The notes beneath the pieces are model-generated. The model saw nothing but the letters and a program-made list of their open reading frames with translations. It was not told where the DNA came from and did not search any database. From assembly GCA_963734545.1 (NCBI GenBank), contig CAVTHO010000009.1, positions 192,001 to 256,000 of the forward strand: a stretch of 64,000 nucleotides of DNA. Direction: 5' to 3'. The position numbers were made by a program, and so were the translations under genes. Below, one piece after another: positions 12,213-61,808 of this stretch; the first letter of the stretch is position 1; the number at the start of each line of letters is the position of its first letter. The stretch is from an uncultured Spirochaetota bacterium. GTDB lineage: Bacteria; Spirochaetota; Spirochaetia; SZUA-6; Fen-1364.

Positions 12213-13048
12213 GGGCCTCGCGCGTGGGGAGCATTGCGGGAGCAGGCGTTCGCTACCTCATCCTGCTCGCGGTGAGCGTCGTGTTCCTCTTCCCCGTCTA
12301 CTGGGTGTTCCTCAAGGCAATCAATGGACCCATCGCCATCTTTCAGTATCCCCCCGACATCTACCCCGTTCGGTTCAGCCTGGCCAATTTCCAGAATGCC
12401 TTCCACAATTTCCACCTGGCCAGGAACTTCCTCAATACGCTCAAGATCATGGGCTTCGCGCTGGTGGGCGCTTCCCTTTCCTCCGCGGTTGTCGGATTCG
12501 GATTCGCGCGGATGCGTTTTCGGGGAAGAAACCTGCTCTTCATCGTGGTGATCGCGAGCATATTCGTCCCCTGGGACGTGAAGGTGATCCCTCAGTTCAT
12601 GGAGTTCAGCGCGCTGGGATGGATCAACACCTACCTGCCCCTGCTCGTGCCCCTGTTCTTCGGCTATCCCTTCTACATATTCATATTCCGCCAGTTCATC
12701 ACACAGATCCCGTACGAGCTCGACGAATCAGCCATCATAGACGGCTGCAGCCGCGTGGGCATCTTCATCCGGATCATTCTGCCGAACCTCACCCCGCCGT
12801 TCATCACCGTACTCGTCTACGAGTTCGTGCGGGTCTGGAACGACTTCCTCGACCCTCTCATTTACCTGAACAAGTCCAGCACCTATACGCTGAGCCTCGG
12901 CATCTACCACATCATCTCTCCGTGGTTCATGGACTGGGGGGCCCTGCTCGCCGCTTCGGCCCTCTCCGTCCTCTTCCCGGTTGTGCTATTCTTCGTATTG
13001 CAGAAATATCTCTTCGGAGGCCTCGTGCTCTCCGGGATCAAAGCGTAG
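12209..13048 (+). CDS. Carbohydrate ABC transporter permease
   Basis: GTGA overlap; ELDESAIIDGCS...IILP, WNDFLDPLIYL. Confidence 0.92.
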   Translation: MRASRVGSIAGAGVRYLILLAVSVVFLFPVYWVFLKAINGPIAIFQYPPDIYPVRFSLANFQNAFHNFHLARNFLNTLKIMGFALVGASLSSAVVGFGFARMRFRGRNLLFIVVIASIFVPWDVKVIPQFMEFSALGWINTYLPLLVPLFFGYPFYIFIFRQFITQIPYELDESAIIDGCSRVGIFIRIILPNLTPPFITVLVYEFVRVWNDFLDPLIYLNKSSTYTLSLGIYHIISPWFMDWGALLAASALSVLFPVVLFFVLQKYLFGGLVLSGIKA

Positions 13049-13118
13049 CCCTTCCGCGGTAGTCCGCGGAGTTGGATGGCGAGGTCGGCCGAGGCCATGG
13101 ATGGCCGAAAGGCCGACC
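13049..13118 (+). repeat. Composite repeat: CCGCGG-TAGT-CCGCGG hairpin plus an AUGGAU-loop hairpin
   Basis: ccttccgcggtagtccgcggagttgga (nearly identical to 59135-59161), then ggtcggcc-ga-ggcc-ATGGAT-ggcc-gaaa-ggccgacc. Confidence 0.75.
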
Positions 13119-13135
13119 GTTGAGGGAGGGTTACT

Positions 13136-14287: not shown

Positions 14288-14293
14288 AGCCTC

Positions 14294-27930: not shown

Positions 27931-27980
27931 CGCCTGTGTCCGTCCCTGGACTCGGCGTCCCTCGACATCCTGTCTACGGG
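27931..27980 (-). repeat. Copy of the GGA-loop repeat family between divergent promoters
   Basis: Minus strand cccgtag-acAGGATgtc-gagggacgccga-gtccAGGGACggac-acaggcg aligns with 60340-60391. Confidence 0.7.
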
Positions 27981-57975: not shown

Positions 57976-59133
57976 ATGAGGAAGACAATGGTCCTCTCCG
58001 TTCTCTTGCTCTCCTTCGCCGCCGGGCTTCTCTGGGCGCAGTTCTGGAGAGACTACACCGACACGGATCGCCGGGCCACCGGCGAGGCATACTGGCTGGT
58101 GGGCGGGCAGTACGAGGCAATCGGACAACCGGAAGTGGGCGGCTCGTTCAAGGCCATGGCCAGGGAAATCTACCCGGAGCTGGATCCGGCTGCAATCACC
58201 GACCAGGCCCTTCCTTCCGCCGCGGAGATGCTCGCGCAGGGACGAACCACGGAAATCGGCGCGGGCGCGGCCGGGATTCCCGCGGGGGCGGTCAATTCGT
58301 TCTTCCTGCGGTTTCTCGGCGCGCTGCTGGACAAGGACGCCGCCGGTATCGCCGGATTCCTGGACGGGTCAGTGTACCTCACGCGGCCGCCCGCCGAGGT
58401 GAGCCGGGCGGACGCCCAGGCGGCAATGGAGGATTTCTTCAAGGACGCCCCGGTCCCGGACCTTCAGCCTTCCCGCGTGTACAACCTGGACAGCATCGTC
58501 ATAGCCCGGGCCCCGCGCGCCATGCAGGCGGCATGGGGAGAAACCTACACGCTCACGGTCAGCGCCGCGGCCGACTACTCGCAGTACGTGAGCTTCTGGG
58601 ACATGACGCAGCAGTTCTTCATCCGGCGCGTGTCGGGAAACTGGTACCTGTTCGGGTACGGTCCCACGCCCCCTCCGCTCAACTGGACGCCGCAGAAGGC
58701 GCAAGCGGTGGAGCAGCAGGCCCCGGCCACCGCGGCTGAGGCAGACGCCGGCAACGCCATCACTCATGCCTTCACCTCGTGCCTGTCCGCCCTTCTGAAA
58801 AAGGACGCGGAGGGAGCGCTCGCATTCATGAGCCCCAGCGTCCATTTTTTGCGGATGCGCCAGAGCGTCACACGGGATGAGTTGAAGACCACGCTGCAGG
58901 GATATTTCGACACCGCGGATTTCAAGAACGCCGAGGCGTCCGACGTGGTGGACCTCGACAGCATATTTGTAGAGCCCAGCGCGAGCCCGGTGCCGGGCGT
59001 GACAGGAGAGGTCTACATGCTCAACGTGCAGTCCAGGATGGACCTCTCGGCCGGCATCCCGTTCTGGTCGGGCTATCAGAGGTACTATTTCATGCAGGAG
59101 GCGGGGAACTGGGTCATATTCGCGATTCTGTAG
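57976..59133 (+). CDS. Exported hypothetical protein with two tandem NTF2-like repeats
   Basis: SD AAGGAGG, signal peptide; duplicated ALLxKDA...LDSI...FW...GNW module. Confidence 0.75.
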   Translation: MRKTMVLSVLLLSFAAGLLWAQFWRDYTDTDRRATGEAYWLVGGQYEAIGQPEVGGSFKAMAREIYPELDPAAITDQALPSAAEMLAQGRTTEIGAGAAGIPAGAVNSFFLRFLGALLDKDAAGIAGFLDGSVYLTRPPAEVSRADAQAAMEDFFKDAPVPDLQPSRVYNLDSIVIARAPRAMQAAWGETYTLTVSAAADYSQYVSFWDMTQQFFIRRVSGNWYLFGYGPTPPPLNWTPQKAQAVEQQAPATAAEADAGNAITHAFTSCLSALLKKDAEGALAFMSPSVHFLRMRQSVTRDELKTTLQGYFDTADFKNAEASDVVDLDSIFVEPSASPVPGVTGEVYMLNVQSRMDLSAGIPFWSGYQRYYFMQEAGNWVIFAIL

Positions 59134-59134
59134 G

Positions 59135-59216
59135 CCTTCCGCGGTACACCGCGGAGTTGGACGCCGAAGGCGCGCCTCGGCAGGGACGACGTTCGCGTCG
59201 AACGGGTACTCCCGTA
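59135..59216 (+). repeat. Composite repeat (CCGCGG-TACA-CCGCGG, CAGGGACG, ACGGG-TACT-CCCGT)
   Basis: Shares about 27 bp with 13050-13076 and 33 bp (1 mismatch) with 60404-60436. Confidence 0.8.
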
Positions 59217-60293
59217 CGCACGAAGCGCGCCTCAGGCCGCGCGGCAATCGCGCGCGCCTTTTCGATCGGACTTCTGCTGATCGCGGGGACGGCGTTCTGC
59301 GAGGGGAAGCTTGGAAGCGTCACGTACCTGGAGGGGGAAGTCTCCATGGTCCGCGACGGCGCGGAAGTGGACAATCTTGCAATAGGGGCGGACCTTCAGA
59401 ATTTCGATCTCATAAGAACCGGCTCCGACGGCCTGGCCGAACTGGAGGTCGCCACATCACAGTCGCCCCGGATGACGATAAAGATCAGTGCGGACACGCA
59501 ATTCTCCTTTGAGATAGCGGCAATCGAGGGAAAGCAACAGACGACCCTGGGCATCCTGGGAGGGAGCATCAGCCTGAAGGCATCCCGTCTCGCCGGCACC
59601 CAGGCACTATCGGTGAAGACGGATACTGCCGTAATGGGGGTGCGGGGCACGCAGTTCGACGTGACGGCACCTCCCACCGGTGACGTCCTGGTGACGTGCG
59701 ATGAAGGTGAAGTGGTCGTCACGGATGACCAGGGCAAGGAGCTTCACGCAATTCCCGGAACCGTCGTGGAAAAAAGGCCGGCCGAGCTGTACCGCACCGT
59801 GCCGGTGGCCGTCTCCGACCTTGCGAAGTTTCGCGGGCAATGGAGCTCCGAGCGCAGGCAGGCGCTGGAAAGAAACGCGCTCCGTTTGATCCAGGCAAAC
59901 GCGAGACTCTACACCGCCCTTGTGGCGGGGTTGAACGCGGCGTACGCCGAGCTCGCGAAAAGCCAGGCCATCCTCAGAAAGTGGGCGGACGAGGACAAAA
60001 GCGCACGGATCGGTCAACGGGCCGAGGTCATCAGGGAAAGAAGGCAGATCGGCGGGCTCCTGGTGCGTCTCCGACGCATTCAATTCCAGCTCGAGCGCGT
60101 CCAGTTCCGACTTCTGCGGCTGAAATCCTACCACGACAGGGGGATCGGGGCAGGACAGCTGGAGGGAGGGGAAACTACAGCGCAGTTCTTCGACAGGTTC
60201 GCGAATGAGCGGAAAGACGTGGAGCAGAAACTGTCATCAACGCGCTCCGTGACAAAGATGTACGTGAGGCGGAGCGAGGGAAGGCTGCCGTAG
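59157..60293 (+). CDS. Exported FecR-domain protein (start codon uncertain)
   Basis: VTYLEGEV, DLIRTGSDG, TDTAVMGVRGTQF, VTCDEGEV; helical C-terminus. Confidence 0.78.
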   Translation: MDAEGAPRQGRRSRRTGTPVRTKRASGRAAIARAFSIGLLLIAGTAFCEGKLGSVTYLEGEVSMVRDGAEVDNLAIGADLQNFDLIRTGSDGLAELEVATSQSPRMTIKISADTQFSFEIAAIEGKQQTTLGILGGSISLKASRLAGTQALSVKTDTAVMGVRGTQFDVTAPPTGDVLVTCDEGEVVVTDDQGKELHAIPGTVVEKRPAELYRTVPVAVSDLAKFRGQWSSERRQALERNALRLIQANARLYTALVAGLNAAYAELAKSQAILRKWADEDKSARIGQRAEVIRERRQIGGLLVRLRRIQFQLERVQFRLLRLKSYHDRGIGAGQLEGGETTAQFFDRFANERKDVEQKLSSTRSVTKMYVRRSEGRLP

Positions 60294-60557
60294 CCAGGGA
60301 TGGCGAGGGCGAGCGAGTCCAGGGATGGACGAAAGCGAGCCCGTAGGCATGGACGCCGAGGGGCGCCGAGTACATGGATGTACGGCAGGCGCCCCTTAGA
60401 CATGGACGACGTTCGCGTCGAACGGGTATTCCCGTATGGCGAGGGGCGCCGAGTACATGGATGTACGGCAGGCGCCCCTTAGACATGGACGACGTTCGCG
60501 TCGAACGGGGGCGCGGGGCGCCAACTTCGTCCGCCGTCGGCGTCCAGTCCAGGGAGG
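60293..60557 (+). repeat. Cluster of 8 CA(G/T)GGANG motifs including an 83-bp-period duplication
   Basis: Copies at 60357-60426 and 60440-60509; hairpins gcc-AGGGAT-ggc, gtcc-AGGGAT-ggac, ggc-ATGGAC-gcc, gtac-ATGGAT-gtac (x2). Confidence 0.85.
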
Positions 60558-60561
60558 CAAT

Positions 60562-60592
60562 AAAAAAGGCTGTCCAGAGGGACAGCCTTTTT
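60562..60592. terminator. Bidirectional intrinsic terminator
   Basis: AAAAAAGGCTGTCC-AGAG-GGACAGCCTTTTT between convergent genes. Confidence 0.88.
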
Positions 60593-60609
60593 CTTGCACA
60601 GTGTGGGTG

Positions 60610-61704
60610 CTAGAATATCGACTTCTCGGTCTCGATGTCGAAGAAATGGATCTTGCTCAGGTCAGGGTGCAGGTTGGCGGTGTCCCCGATGTGGAAGGTG
60701 AATCGCGGTGCGACCTTTGCGACAAGCTGGTTCGCCTTGGTGCTGACCCAGAGGTGGATCTCGGAACCGAGCGGCTCGATGACCTCCACCTTTGACGGAA
60801 TATTATTCACCCTTTCCGGCGCTTCCGTGTAGAGCAGATCTTCGGGTCTCACGCCGAAGATGGCATCCTTCCCGGCGTAGTTGCGCAGGGTCTCCGACTG
60901 CTGCGGGGTGAGCTCCATCTTGAAGGAGCCTTCATCCGCTATCAGCTTGCCGTTTTCCATCTTCAGGCTGACCTTCATGAAGTTCATCGGAGGGGACCCG
61001 ATGAATCCGGCCACGAACCTGTTCACCGGCGTGTTGTACAGACCCAGCGGCGTGCCGATCTGCTGAATGAGCCCGTCCTTGAGCACCACGATCCTGTCCC
61101 CCATGGTCATTGCCTCGATCTGGTCATGGGTGACATAGATCATCGTTGCCTGGAGCCTGTGGTGCAGCGCGGAAAGCTCGGCCCTCATCTGGACCCTCAG
61201 CTTCGCGTCCAGGTTGGAGAGCGGCTCGTCGAAGAGGAATACCTTGGGCTTGCGCACGATGGCGCGTCCCACCGCGACGCGCTGCCTCTGTCCGCCGGAG
61301 AGCGCCTTGGGCTTCCGGTCGAGCAGCTCCTCGATGTCCAGGATCTGCGCGGCTTCGTGCACGCGCGCGTTGATTTCCGCCTTTGGATACTTGCGGATCT
61401 TCAAGCCGAACGCCATGTTGTCATAGACCGTCATGTGGGGATACAGGGCGTAGTTCTGGAACACCATGGCGATGTCCCGGTCCTTCGGCGCTACGTCGTT
61501 CATGAGCTTTCCGTCGATGTAAAGCTCACCGGTCGAGATTTCCTCGAGCCCCGCGACCATCCTGAGGGTGGTGGTCTTCCCGCAACCCGACGGACCAACC
61601 AGGACGACGAATTCCTTGTCATTAATCGTCAGGTTTGCGTTGTCGACGGCCTTGACGCCGCCTTCATAGATCTTGGTGATGTTTCGCAATTCTACTGTCG
61701 CCAT
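60610..61704 (-). CDS. ugpC: Stand-alone sugar ABC ATPase (MsmX/UgpC/MalK type)
   Basis: GPSGCGKTT, VFQNYALYPHM, LSGGQRQR, DEPLSNLDAKLR, YVTHDQ, GSPPMN; promoter TTGACA-N17-TATTCT (61740-61768). Confidence 0.9.
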   Translation of the reverse strand: MATVELRNITKIYEGGVKAVDNANLTINDKEFVVLVGPSGCGKTTTLRMVAGLEEISTGELYIDGKLMNDVAPKDRDIAMVFQNYALYPHMTVYDNMAFGLKIRKYPKAEINARVHEAAQILDIEELLDRKPKALSGGQRQRVAVGRAIVRKPKVFLFDEPLSNLDAKLRVQMRAELSALHHRLQATMIYVTHDQIEAMTMGDRIVVLKDGLIQQIGTPLGLYNTPVNRFVAGFIGSPPMNFMKVSLKMENGKLIADEGSFKMELTPQQSETLRNYAGKDAIFGVRPEDLLYTEAPERVNNIPSKVEVIEPLGSEIHLWVSTKANQLVAKVAPRFTFHIGDTANLHPDLSKIHFFDIETEKSIF

Positions 61705-61808
61705 TGGCAACCTCCCGCGTGGATTATTCTATGGATACCAGAATAGAATAGAACCCGGGAGATGTCAATTGAAATCTGGGAAACCAGGGGTTCTTTGGGC
61801 CTCGCGCC

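Follow-up and report, generated by a model that had tools for sequence, protein, structure and literature searches.

A mobile REP-like repeat array behind a FecR-like gene of a spirochaete and its possible role as dispersed CsrA decoys

We analysed a stretch of 64,000 nt, here called the window, from an uncultured Spirochaetota bacterium (assembly GCA_963734545.1, contig CAVTHO010000009.1, positions 192,001 to 256,000). An earlier note, made from the sequence alone, had described a cluster of GGA hairpin loops behind a FecR-like gene and had proposed it to be a CsrB/RsmZ-like sponge for CsrA. From our analysis, some 300 nt directly behind the FecR-like stop appear to be a head-to-tail array of a repeat, with three full units followed by a cut one and a module that closes the array, and further elements of the same family lie elsewhere in the window. 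The features are listed below; L082 (~90% identical) and L081 are relatives, and C4, C5, C6, C7, and C9 are contigs.

13045..13122, + strand: a unit beginning at a TAG stop, its first loop holding a nested CTTCCGCGGTAGTCCGCGGAGT hairpin (unit match C9:205073-205120).
27936..27976, - strand: a partial unit (match C9:219936-219976), which the relative lacks at this position.
59131..59234, + strand: a second same-family element, beginning at the TAG stop of ORF 57976-59133, with nested modules in both loops; the same site is empty in L082.
59157..60293, + strand: the FecR-like gene (Pfam FecR, E = 1.7e-9), whose TAG stop at 60291-60293 doubles as the tag of unit 1.
60290..60342, + strand: repeat unit 1, with the GTAG tag, hairpin 1 GCCAGGGAUGGC at 60293-60304, and then hairpin 2.
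60343..60395, + strand: repeat unit 2, of another subfamily, with outer stem GGGGCGCC/GGCGCCCC, inner stem GUACA/UGUAC, and the hairpin GUACAUGGAUGUAC.
60396..60478, + strand: repeat unit 3, a copy of unit 2 with a nested module at 60407-60436 in its first hairpin; one copy of an 83-nt duplication.
60479..60560, + strand: the cut fourth unit and a 3' terminal module (..ACUUCGUCCGCCGUCGGCGUCCAGUCCAGGGAGG..); the second copy of the 83-nt duplication.
60563..60592, both directions: an intrinsic terminator between the convergent FecR-like and ABC ATPase genes, kept in L082 and L081.
60610-61710, - strand: the ABC ATPase gene (ATPase Pfam match).

The eight CAKGGABG motifs that had been claimed were all recovered on the + strand at the same positions (60295, 60320, 60348, 60373, 60401, 60456, 60484, and 60550), and the first hairpin does follow directly on the TAG of the FecR-like ORF. 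The whole window holds 42 matches against 20.8 +/- 4.3 in shuffled sequence (42 was reached by 0 of 100 shuffles); the remaining 34 are scattered over both strands of the 64 kb, which is indicative that eight within 263 nt of a single strand are far above background. Nowhere else in the genome do GGA hairpins cluster as densely as in the array (seven strict motifs in 322 nt), and several of its GGA motifs lie in hairpin loops on one strand, as in CsrB/RsmZ-type RNAs. For the + strand RNA of 60290-60600 the folding energy is -168.8 kcal/mol (z = -8.45), and the - strand folds equally well (z = -8.46), so that the strand is not decided by folding energy alone. The hairpins proposed earlier were found in the full fold, with GGA in every loop, on the stems GCCA/UGGC, GUCCA/UGGAC, and GUACA/UGUAC (twice), drawn as tetraloops instead of the proposed hexaloops because the folding program closes an A-U pair, and the GGC/GCC hairpin, absent from the full-length fold, forms when unit 2 is folded alone. 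The terminator seen earlier was confirmed as perfect 13-nt inverted arms (60563-60575 and 60580-60592), preceded by an A-run and followed by a T-run, and was missed by a simple terminator scan. Two ORFs, 60300-60482 and 60374-60613, lie inside units repeating at 53 and 83 nt; since these periods are not multiples of 3, we took the ORFs as by-products and rejected a coding reading.

Folded alone, unit 1 reaches -25.7 kcal/mol (z = -4.83); its second hairpin has an outer stem GGGCGAGC/GCGAGCCC with tandem G-A pairs, an inner stem GUCCA/UGGAC, and the loop GGGA. It is the best covariance-model match of the genome (81.9 bits) and the first row of the unit alignment. [quoted passage not shown] The nested module of unit 3 is made of a cUUCGg hairpin, CGACG-UUCG-CGUCG, and a hairpin ACGGG-UAUU-CCCGU, and the 3' terminal module, present in L082 too, also closes other arrays (C7:943421-943451 and C5:555302-555329). 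The public reads examined were metagenome runs kept as contigs, including one RNA run, whose sole contig of 235 nt lies inside the FecR-like coding region (59671-59905) and is uninformative on transcription of the array either way; in the DNA runs, many short contigs stack on 60279-60474, as expected for a repeat.

Each 53-nt unit starts with G/A-TAG, followed by two hairpins whose loops both read CA-N-GGA-U-G (also written CANGGATG), with the two GGA loops ~26 nt apart. Across 44 aligned units, which were selected to begin at model position 1, the T and A of the tag are invariant (44/44), and the base in front of them is mostly G (34 units), otherwise A (7) or C (3). The stems of these units vary in a compensatory manner: 86.7% of the stem cells are paired against 69.8% in shuffled alignments, 105 cells are changed on both sides against 39, and the covariation score is 0.346 against 0.086, a value reached by 0 of 500 shuffles (slid controls 0.013-0.076). 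Through all this the three GGA letters persist, at 44, 43, and 44 of 44 for loop 1 and at 44, 43, and 43 of 44 for loop 2; the N position is free to vary. Each loop is likewise kept in 28 of 32 units from other genera despite their different stems, and the sites in common with the ~90%-identical species show paired stem changes or swaps of whole subfamilies around a constant GGA. The internal loop has further conserved unpaired positions, GAG on its 5' side and G-N-N-A on its 3' side.

Stem mismatches are highly asymmetric, with 51 of the G-A/A-G type against one of the C-T/T-C type, an excess that comes mainly from two abundant subfamilies. No such asymmetry was found between G-U and A-C stem pairs (10 vs 7; 3 vs 4 and 7 vs 4), and as G-U is not commoner than A-C, the wobble test gives selection at the RNA level no support. 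The nested module occurs in seven copies in the genome, with a constant TTCG loop on two covarying stem variants. Insertion of nested modules into GGA loops disrupts the way these loops are displayed.

The earlier suggestion that the cluster might be repeat-derived is borne out. The array region yields 91 BLAST segments in its own genome, and the family comprises 86 units in 67 arrays by iterated nhmmer search and 88 units by the covariance model, dispersed behind ordinary genes over nine of the ten contigs. The covariance model matches all 20 same-genus genomes examined (11-64 matches each) and all four genomes of other genera of the family (4-30 each; 5-36 at a looser cut-off), and only two of 16 genomes of other families, marginally. 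The repeat family is thus lineage-specific and essentially restricted to one bacterial family, with the qualification that a model which rewards GGA loops would miss relatives without them.

The gene context of the units is strongly biased towards stop codons. Among our gene calls, which come from a crude purpose-made caller, 36 of 1294 TAG-ending calls abut an element, against two of 2687 TGA-ending and none of 400 TAA-ending calls, and in 21 arrays the TAG of the unit is itself the stop codon (distance 0). By the same calls, 41 of the 67 arrays lie at most 150 nt downstream of a credible same-strand ORF (23 of them without a credible opposite-strand ORF), seven follow an opposite-strand ORF only, and 19 have no credible ORF nearby. 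One long array adjoins the 5' end of an opposite-strand tRNA gene. Two universal 16S primer motifs had no match in C6:319956-324988. The number of intact motifs per unit shows no clear difference between sense (1.41) and antisense-only (1.50) arrays, the numbers being small.

Comparison with relatives indicates that the units turn over. In both relatives the FecR-like orthologue (93% identical in L082, 61% in L081) likewise has a TAG stop with a unit behind it, and the locus holds 3.5 units here against one in each relative. The 83-nt duplication described earlier is confirmed, with copies 83 nt apart of which 70 nt are 100% identical; it is recent, enlarged the array, and is missing from the ~90%-identical relative. 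Of 26 collinear sites compared with the relative, 19 are shared and seven are not, and empty and filled sites occur in both directions. Identical 4-nt flanks stand on both sides of units (GTAG..GTAG, CTAG..CTAG, CAAG..CAAG, and CTGG..CTGG), and at one empty site the GTAG is already present. New units go in directly behind a GTAG, in very many cases one that contains the TAG stop of a gene, and since a unit ends in GTAG again, arrays can grow.

The closest likeness is to the GTAG-tagged REP/BIME repeats (Di Nocera et al. 2013, PMC3733652; Nunvar et al. 2010, PMC2817692). As far as the available parts of the survey describe them (PMC3733652), both consist of short, GC-rich palindromes that carry an unpaired GTAG on one end, dispersed and mostly extragenic in tens to hundreds of copies, mostly behind same-direction or convergent ORFs to which the tag often supplies the TAG stop, and both have subfamilies with complementary stem changes, clusters of units, and copy differences between relatives. 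The same parts of the survey report CGTC repeats in Spirochaetes and, as far as seen there, do not name Spirochaetes in the GTAG list (PMC3733652). The differences are equally clear: the unit here has two hairpins with long conserved loops, whereas most REP loops are 2-4 nt, and its multi-unit arrays each run head to tail on a single strand at 53-nt spacing, whereas REP/BIMEs are inverted pairs (PMC3733652). Unlike the GTAG-tagged REPs, the repeat also carries other small hairpin modules nested in its loops.

Unlike RAYT-linked REPs, the repeat has no linked RAYT-type transposase in the 25 family genomes searched (60-99% complete), of which ten lack a Y1 transposase and yet carry 5-64 units. 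The covariance model gave no good unit match at 30 Y1 transposase loci (best 16.4 bits), and the single Y1_Tnp gene of this genome has different hairpins of its own. The RAYT hypothesis is rejected as far as tested. An integron attC or VCR-type reading was also rejected, as the units are dispersed over the contigs and stand in tandem with no cassettes between, whereas attC repeats follow gene cassettes within one array beside an integrase; attC core sites are RYYYAAC / GTTRRRY, and these were not seen in the unit alignment. MIRU is a co-transcribed repeat of a similar type, which overlaps stop and start codons. With it and with Correia/NEMIS, ERIC, and RUP, co-transcribed bacterial repeats of MITE type (PMC3733652, in the parts available), the present family has in common that they are small non-coding gene-adjacent repeats folding into hairpins. 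Those repeats are transcribed with neighbouring genes and their hairpins alter the fate of the mRNA; the units here are shorter, show no evident terminal inverted repeats in their alignment, and conserve the loop motif instead of the ends.

The earlier note had made its proposal depend on csrA, and both csrA (C4:34761-34919, a 121-aa ORF) and fliW are present in the genome, adjacent to each other and downstream of a flagellin-family gene which we take to be flgL. The array loops match the CsrA consensus, as had been claimed; published as the SELEX consensus RUACARGGAUGU with the GGA in a hairpin loop (PMC4347634, as far as available). They also match the hairpin of the flagellin leaders of this lineage itself. 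Four of four such leaders here have GGA motifs upstream of the Shine-Dalgarno sequence, three of four have the GGA-loop hairpin, and two of four match CANGGAUG exactly; the same hairpin was present in all eight distinct flagellin leaders read from four repeat-free genomes of sister families. It lies 13-25 nt upstream of the Shine-Dalgarno sequence, which is the classic place of the first CsrA site. The unit loop and the flagellin-leader hairpin agree at 7/7 specified positions and have the stem directly flanking the octamer in common, and only 24 comparable hairpins were found in intergenic DNA outside the arrays. In the parts of the literature available to us, CsrA sites are described for the flagellin leaders of other bacteria (B. 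subtilis hag BS1/BS2, C. difficile fliC, and flaB of Borrelia and Leptospira; PMC8523840, PMC8668096), and CsrA binds flaB leaders in spirochaetes (PMC8668096). The repeat hairpin, x-CA-N-GGA-U-G-x', also matches the published first flagellin-leader site, TGACAAGGATGT (PMC8523840). Given csrA, fliW, and loops of this kind, binding of CsrA to the units is plausible on sequence grounds. The leader sites block ribosome binding in cis (PMC8523840, PMC8668096, as far as available), whereas hairpins after a stop codon are in no position to stop translation of their own gene from starting. A search for literature linking CsrA with REPs, MITEs, or spirochaete sponges gave nothing relevant by title and abstract.

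Our preferred reading, to which we give a probability of about one half, is that the array is one of many REP-like mobile arrays whose units work as dispersed CsrA decoys on mRNA 3' ends. As it lies between a stop codon and a terminator, the array, further enlarged by the recent 83-nt duplication, would form the 3' end of the FecR-like transcript. Its loops copy the hairpin that precedes flagellin ribosome-binding sites in this spirochaete order and that elsewhere is a CsrA target, for which reason the most likely working is one CsrA dimer per unit via the two GGA loops. Taken together, the ~90 units at the 3' ends of many mRNAs would form a dispersed decoy pool acting on CsrA activity, with the FecR-like locus as its largest single array and not a dedicated sponge gene. 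A bolder version, which we put forward tentatively and consider rather unlikely, is that the CsrA hairpin of the flagellin leaders was acquired by a mobile REP-like element, which now distributes strong CsrA sites in pairs over the 3' ends of dozens of mRNAs; this would create an RNA-based CsrA buffer in a FliW-type lineage.

Several observations touch on a decoy function of the + strand RNA. About 170 extra strong sites look costly if the stoichiometry is like that of Hag, FliW, and CsrA in B. subtilis, which is near 1:1:1 (PMC8523840, in the part available). The lack of a G-U excess, the seven antisense-only arrays and the 19 without a credible ORF nearby, the intact motifs being no more frequent in sense contexts, and the spoiling of GGA loops by nested modules also speak against decoys, while the G-A mismatch bias, the UUCG loop on a covarying stem, and the placement of arrays on the sense side speak for an RNA role.

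The strongest rival, which we consider possible and less probable than decoys, is that the loops of this REP-like mobile array serve its own spread through some ssDNA transposase or nuclease, or another RNA-binding protein, and that on RNA the units are a generic 3' hairpin block stabilising or terminating the mRNA, the likeness to CsrA sites being a 7-nt coincidence. The elements are clearly mobile and target GTAG, they stand in antisense and gene-free contexts too, their stems have no G-U excess, and CsrA has no need of the conserved unpaired GAG and G-N-N-A; for GTAG-tagged REPs of other organisms, an action as RNA hairpins or as DNA sites that does not involve CsrA is assumed (PMC3733652, as far as available). 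A coincidence is harder to reconcile with the agreement with the flagellin-leader hairpin at all specified positions and in the directly flanking stem, and with two loops per unit at a spacing that suits a dimer, and an own-spread function with the missing link to a RAYT-type enzyme, both at the Y1 loci and in the genomes without Y1. An improbable alternative is a role at the DNA level only, as a cruciform, a recombination hot spot, or a site for a protein such as gyrase or an IHF-like factor, as proposed for E. coli REPs, which are gyrase targets (PMC3733652, as far as available). Equal folding of both strands and units in both orientations relative to genes would fit such a role, but the asymmetry between G-A/A-G and C-T/T-C mismatches, the UUCG loop of the nested module, the sense bias with shared stop codons, and the head-to-tail instead of inverted arrangement argue against it.

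The array does resemble CsrB, CsrC, RsmY, and RsmZ in its many GGA motifs in hairpin loops on varied stems, in a spacing of neighbouring motifs that suits a CsrA dimer, and in its strong 3' terminator. Those RNAs come from single-copy genes with their own regulated promoters, and the gammaproteobacteria that have them are, to our knowledge, without FliW; the array here, unlike them, is the stop-codon-anchored 3' UTR form of a mobile repeat found in 67 places of a FliW-type organism. No sigma-70-like site was found on the + strand in 58900-60290 by a scan for this one promoter type, and Rfam (cmscan to E = 10) gave five chance-level matches on the array, with no Csr/Rsm family and none near threshold. 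Hence the dedicated CsrB/RsmZ-like sponge gene with its own expression control that had been proposed at this locus is very improbable, since the densest GGA-hairpin cluster, the terminator, and a unit behind the stop in all three orthologous loci are outweighed by its being one of 67 arrays, by its start at a stop codon with no such promoter-like site upstream, by the Rfam result, and by a unit number and type that differ between close relatives.

REP-type repeats are abundant and the purpose of their loops is mostly unknown, and in FliW-type bacteria such as Bacillus, Campylobacter, and spirochaetes CsrA is thought to be restrained by a protein, RNA decoys being doubtful or absent. Two copies of the flagellin-leader CsrA hairpin per unit, kept family-wide through turnover of the stems, make this repeat a concrete candidate, testable at little cost, for a system of RNA decoys that mobile DNA has spread. 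For annotation, caution should be exercised in these genomes, where clusters of GGA hairpins are repeats and not sRNA genes. Even without any CsrA binding, the family keeps its value as a new, clearly delimited GTAG-tagged repeat that lacks a RAYT and shows insertion behind stop codons, with empty and filled sites, and a second layer of modules that insert into loops. If the bolder version is true, no RNA antagonist of CsrA derived from dispersed mobile DNA would precede this one, nor any shown to work alongside FliW; CsrA would be a reader of mRNA 3' ends, and its buffer would rise and fall with overall transcription.

Directly 3' of a FecR-domain ORF (Pfam), whose TAG stop lies at 60291-60293, pattern matching recovered the eight CAKGGABG motifs of the earlier note on the + strand (60295, 60320, 60348, 60373, 60401, 60456, 60484, and 60550), and folding of 60290-60600 as RNA placed GGA in the loops of short hairpins with differing stems, as had been described. 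The entire window holds 42 such matches, compared with 20.8 ± 4.3 in shuffles, the remaining 34 being scattered on both strands. The predicted fold energy of the region was -168.8 kcal/mol (z = -8.45), and the opposite strand folds equally (z = -8.46). The proposed terminator is a perfect 13-nt inverted repeat (60563-60592) with an A-run 5' and a T-run 3', and it is two-way, standing ahead of a convergent ABC ATPase gene. The claimed 83-nt duplication was also borne out, and is recent because its copies share 70 identical nucleotides. An Rfam search of the region found no family.

The idea of a CsrB/RsmZ-like sponge gene gave way to a different reading, in which the region belongs, as a single array, to a repeat family spread through the genome (86-88 units in 67 arrays), an assignment we consider practically certain. 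With the region as query, a BLAST search of the genome that carries it (5.14 Mb, 10 contigs, ∼62.7% G+C, 89% complete) returned 91 segments from both strands of nine of the 10 contigs. Iterated nhmmer searches, run to convergence, gave 86 units in the 67 arrays, and a covariance model built on 44 full units gave 88. By strict motif count the region's array is the densest in the genome (7 motifs in 322 nt), its motif number being equalled by a 1091-nt stretch on contig 7. The family members of the window are as follows.

60290-60342, + strand: unit 1
60343-60395, + strand: unit 2, of a different subfamily
60396-60478, + strand: unit 3, with a nested module
60479-60560, + strand: cut fourth unit and an end module that also occurs at other arrays
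60563-60592: terminator, closing the array
59131-59234: further family element
13045-13122: further family element
27936-27976, - strand: further family element

The 53-nt unit comprises a G/A-TAG tag, a first hairpin (G-N-CA-N-GGA-Y-G-N'-C), and a second hairpin with an 8-bp outer stem, a 5-bp inner stem, the loop CA-N-GGA-U-G, and an internal loop with GA on its 5' side and G-N-N-A on its 3' side. Selection acts on this structure, in which the loops stay constant. In the alignment of the 44 units, paired cells amounted to 86.7% (69.8% when shuffled), both-side changes to 105 cells (39 when shuffled), and the covariation score to 0.346 (0.086 when shuffled), a value reached in none of 500 shuffles, with slid-partner controls scoring 0.013-0.076. 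The outer stem occurs in complementary versions (e.g., GGGCGAGC/GCGAGCCC, GGTCGGCC/GGCCGACC, GGGGCGCC/GGCGCCCC, and GGGCCGAC/GGAGGCCC) that are freely combined among units with those of the inner stem (TCC, GCC, TAC, TGC, and CAC). Each letter of GGA is present in both loops in 43 or 44 of the 44 units, and all four bases occur at the N position of the loop. Stem mismatches are nearly all tandem G-A/A-G (51, against one C-T/T-C), which are stable on the unit's own strand only; two abundant subfamilies account for most of this excess. G-U pairs were not commoner than A-C (10 vs. 7, with further counts of 3 vs. 4 and 7 vs. 4), and therefore the wobble test for the transcribed strand gives no support.

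We then related the family to genes called with a crude codon-usage caller (4381 calls, 85.5% coding). An element lies directly 3' of 36 of the 1294 TAG-ending genes, compared with 2 of 2687 ending in TGA and none of 400 ending in TAA, and CG precedes the stop in 21 of 38 element-flanked cases as against 121 of all 1294 TAG genes. When a credible ORF was defined by ≥100 codons and a positive coding score, 41 of the 67 arrays were found ≤150 nt downstream of one on the same strand; TAG terminates 37 of these 41 ORFs, and in 21 arrays this stop codon is supplied by the unit itself. No credible opposite-strand ORF accompanies 23 of the 41 sense arrays, whereas 7 arrays follow an opposite-strand ORF alone and 19 follow neither. 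Thus, the family is biased to the sense strand just 3' of stops, though not exclusively. An earlier sorting by nearest gene call had placed 23 arrays between convergent and 9 between divergent genes, with the remaining same-direction arrays split into 24 sense and 11 antisense; a missed gene lay behind at least one of these 11. A 3.5-unit array on contig C7 (961800-962100, - strand) lies 1 nt from the 5' end of an opposite-strand tRNA gene, with CAGG/AAGG at its unit boundaries in place of GTAG, and another (C5:335753-335845, - strand) has a tRNA gene on either side, runs in sense with them, and is retained in the relative described below apart from a paired change from G-C to A-U.

The covariance model matches all 20 same-genus genomes (11-64 matches each) and all four genomes from three other genera of the family (4-30 matches, or 5-36 at a looser cut-off); in other families of the order, 2 of 16 genomes (seven families) match, once each and with a marginal E-value. 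Units of the other genera have different stems and 4-nt flanks, the flanks are often equal on both sides of the unit (CTAG, CAAG, CTGG), and each GGA loop is kept in 28 of 32 units, a count biased upwards because the model rewards GGA loops. Turnover was assessed against a relative with ∼90% nucleotide identity in flanking genes (G041, reached via its locus L082, which is the same assembly as G014 of the relatives list, with identical unit coordinates). The element at 59134-59234 and the unit at 27936-27976 are missing in the relative. Near 14288, the window has a bare CCGTAG and the relative has a unit directly 3' of its CCGTAG stop; therefore, the GTAG target pre-exists and insertion takes place 3' of it. 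Among 26 unit sites of the relative with collinear flanks here, 19 are also filled in the own genome and 7 are not. Shared sites show frequent paired stem changes (e.g., TGC/GCA to TAC/GTA, GGGC/GCCC to GAGC/GCTC), and some carry a wholly different unit subfamily in the relative, with GGA unchanged despite the stem differences; arrays are mostly uniform within one genome. A single unit follows the FecR-like gene of the relative, compared with three and a half in the window, and a 61%-identical FecR-like orthologue also has a unit 3', of still another composition.

The element 3' of the stop of ORF 57976-59133 also lies within the FecR-like coding sequence, at its 5' end, as an in-frame insert of ∼37 codons. 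The FecR-like TTG start of the relative (L082 2395-2450) overlaps the end of the upstream gene and is followed by a lipoprotein-type signal peptide; the window has CTG at that position, its first start codon being a TTG within the repeat (59157), from which the protein has a long arginine-rich N-terminal extension.

The closest known kind of element is the GTAG-tagged REP. In passages of a REP survey (Di Nocera et al., 2013; PMC3733652), most GTAG REPs are placed 3' of ORFs, between same-direction and convergent genes, their subfamilies differ by complementary stem changes, and RAYT transposases are thought to move them; these passages report CGTC repeats in Spirochaetes and do not name Spirochaetes among the GTAG-repeat phyla that they list. 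Repeats of this class, and their habit of lying at stop codons, are already known. Unlike classic REPs, the present family has head-to-tail arrays, two hairpins with long conserved loops per unit, and small secondary modules inside the loops. A RAYT link fails on the evidence of the Y1 genes in family genomes. The single Y1 (IS200-type) transposase gene of the own genome (160 aa, C4:159630-159989, at 1400-2000 of locus L003) lies in low-GC DNA between CCACCGCC-N4-GGCGGTGG hairpins of its own and is unrelated to the units. Of 25 family genomes, 10 are without a Y1 transposase, including three with a completeness of 96-97%, yet these 10 hold 5-64 units, and a model search of 30 transposase loci gave no good unit.

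The secondary modules sit at or directly 3' of the CA-N-GGA-U-G octamer and include a 22-nt hairpin (CTTCCGCGGTACNCCGCGGAGT), a cUUCGg hairpin followed by ACGGG-TAYT-CCCGT, and a module starting GCGTAGGGCGGCAGG. They were found at 60407-60436 and 59187-59216 of the window and at C1:58644-58714, C7:154895-155041, C5:459799-459875, and other sites of the genome; in one unit the same 22-nt insert occupies both loops, and the relative is without it. The modules look like a second layer of mobile elements targeting loops. In a title-and-abstract search of the literature on CsrA together with REPs, MITEs, and spirochete sponges, we found no Spirochaetota REP-like family whose loops are the lineage's CsrA site, and likewise neither the lack of a RAYT nor loop-targeted nested modules. 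On contig C6 (319900-320120 and 324500-324950, also near 334000), ∼150-nt inverted repeats holding long-stem (7-11 bp) hairpins with CANGGACG loops flank a 5-kb stretch without gene calls; sequence beside one flank resembles what we take, by eye, to be the 5' end of a recombinase gene. Two 16S primer motifs had no match in the stretch, which hence does not look like an rRNA operon.

Both csrA and fliW, which the earlier note had invoked, are present in the genome, adjacent to each other and downstream of a flagellin-family gene, presumably flgL. CsrA (121 aa, N-terminus MLILARRIGES; 1294-1659, - strand, of locus L001 on contig C4) has a core that we take, by eye, to align with E. coli CsrA, and a repetitive C-terminal tail rich in proline, alanine, and glycine. 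The open frame around csrA reaches up to 276 codons in same-family genomes, ∼89-156 in most sister families, and 235 in one. The strongest new evidence for a putative CsrA link comes from the flagellin leaders. GGA motifs lie 13-25 nt upstream of an AAGGAGG-type Shine-Dalgarno sequence in all four own leaders, of which three form a GGA-loop hairpin (CCGGAC-AAGGAA-GUCCGG, GGAGG-CACGGAUG-CCUCC, and CGGG-CAUGGAUG-CCCG) and two contain an exact copy of the repeat's octamer. Four genomes of sister families without the repeat show the same hairpin in 8 of 8 distinct readable leaders and the strict octamer in 7 of 8, a count omitting three loci that did not fit the start pattern. Across ∼770 kb of intergenic DNA, comparable hairpins (≥3 extra stem pairs) off arrays number only 24, including one flagellin leader. 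Two near-complete genomes of family f7 (G030 and G037) gave no csrA match, and G030 gave no flagellin match; this may be a branch of the order that lacks flagella. A spacing of ∼26 nt separates the two loops of a unit, within the span that a CsrA dimer can bridge. The leader layout is that published for two-site CsrA binding on flagellin mRNAs, where the passages concerned describe sites BS1 and BS2 on B. subtilis hag and a predicted BS1 site, TGACAAGGATGT, on C. difficile fliC (PMC8523840). In the SELEX consensus, RUACARGGAUGU, the ACA and GGA letters do not vary, and a hairpin loop holds the GGA (PMC4347634). For Leptospira and Borrelia, the relevant passages report CsrA binding to flaB leaders, no csrB/csrC, and fliW beside csrA (PMC8668096).

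Several observations nevertheless stand against the CsrA step: G-U pairs are not in excess in the stems, some arrays run antisense to genes or lie far from them, intact motifs are no commoner in sense contexts (1.41 per unit, vs. 1.50 in antisense-only contexts), loops are broken by nested insertions, and other unpaired positions, for which CsrA would have no use, are conserved. Moreover, ∼170 extra sites would upset a Hag-FliW-CsrA stoichiometry near 1:1:1, as a passage on B. subtilis gives it (PMC8523840). The main rival, which we hold to be possible though the less probable account, assigns the loops to another protein or to the spread of the element itself, with the array as no more than a generic 3' hairpin block. 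The reading we prefer, with a probability of about 0.5, is that the region would be the 3' UTR of the FecR-like mRNA, assembled from mobile REP-like units whose loops are putative CsrA sites, and may be the biggest single element in a scattered pool of CsrA decoys, as opposed to a sponge gene.
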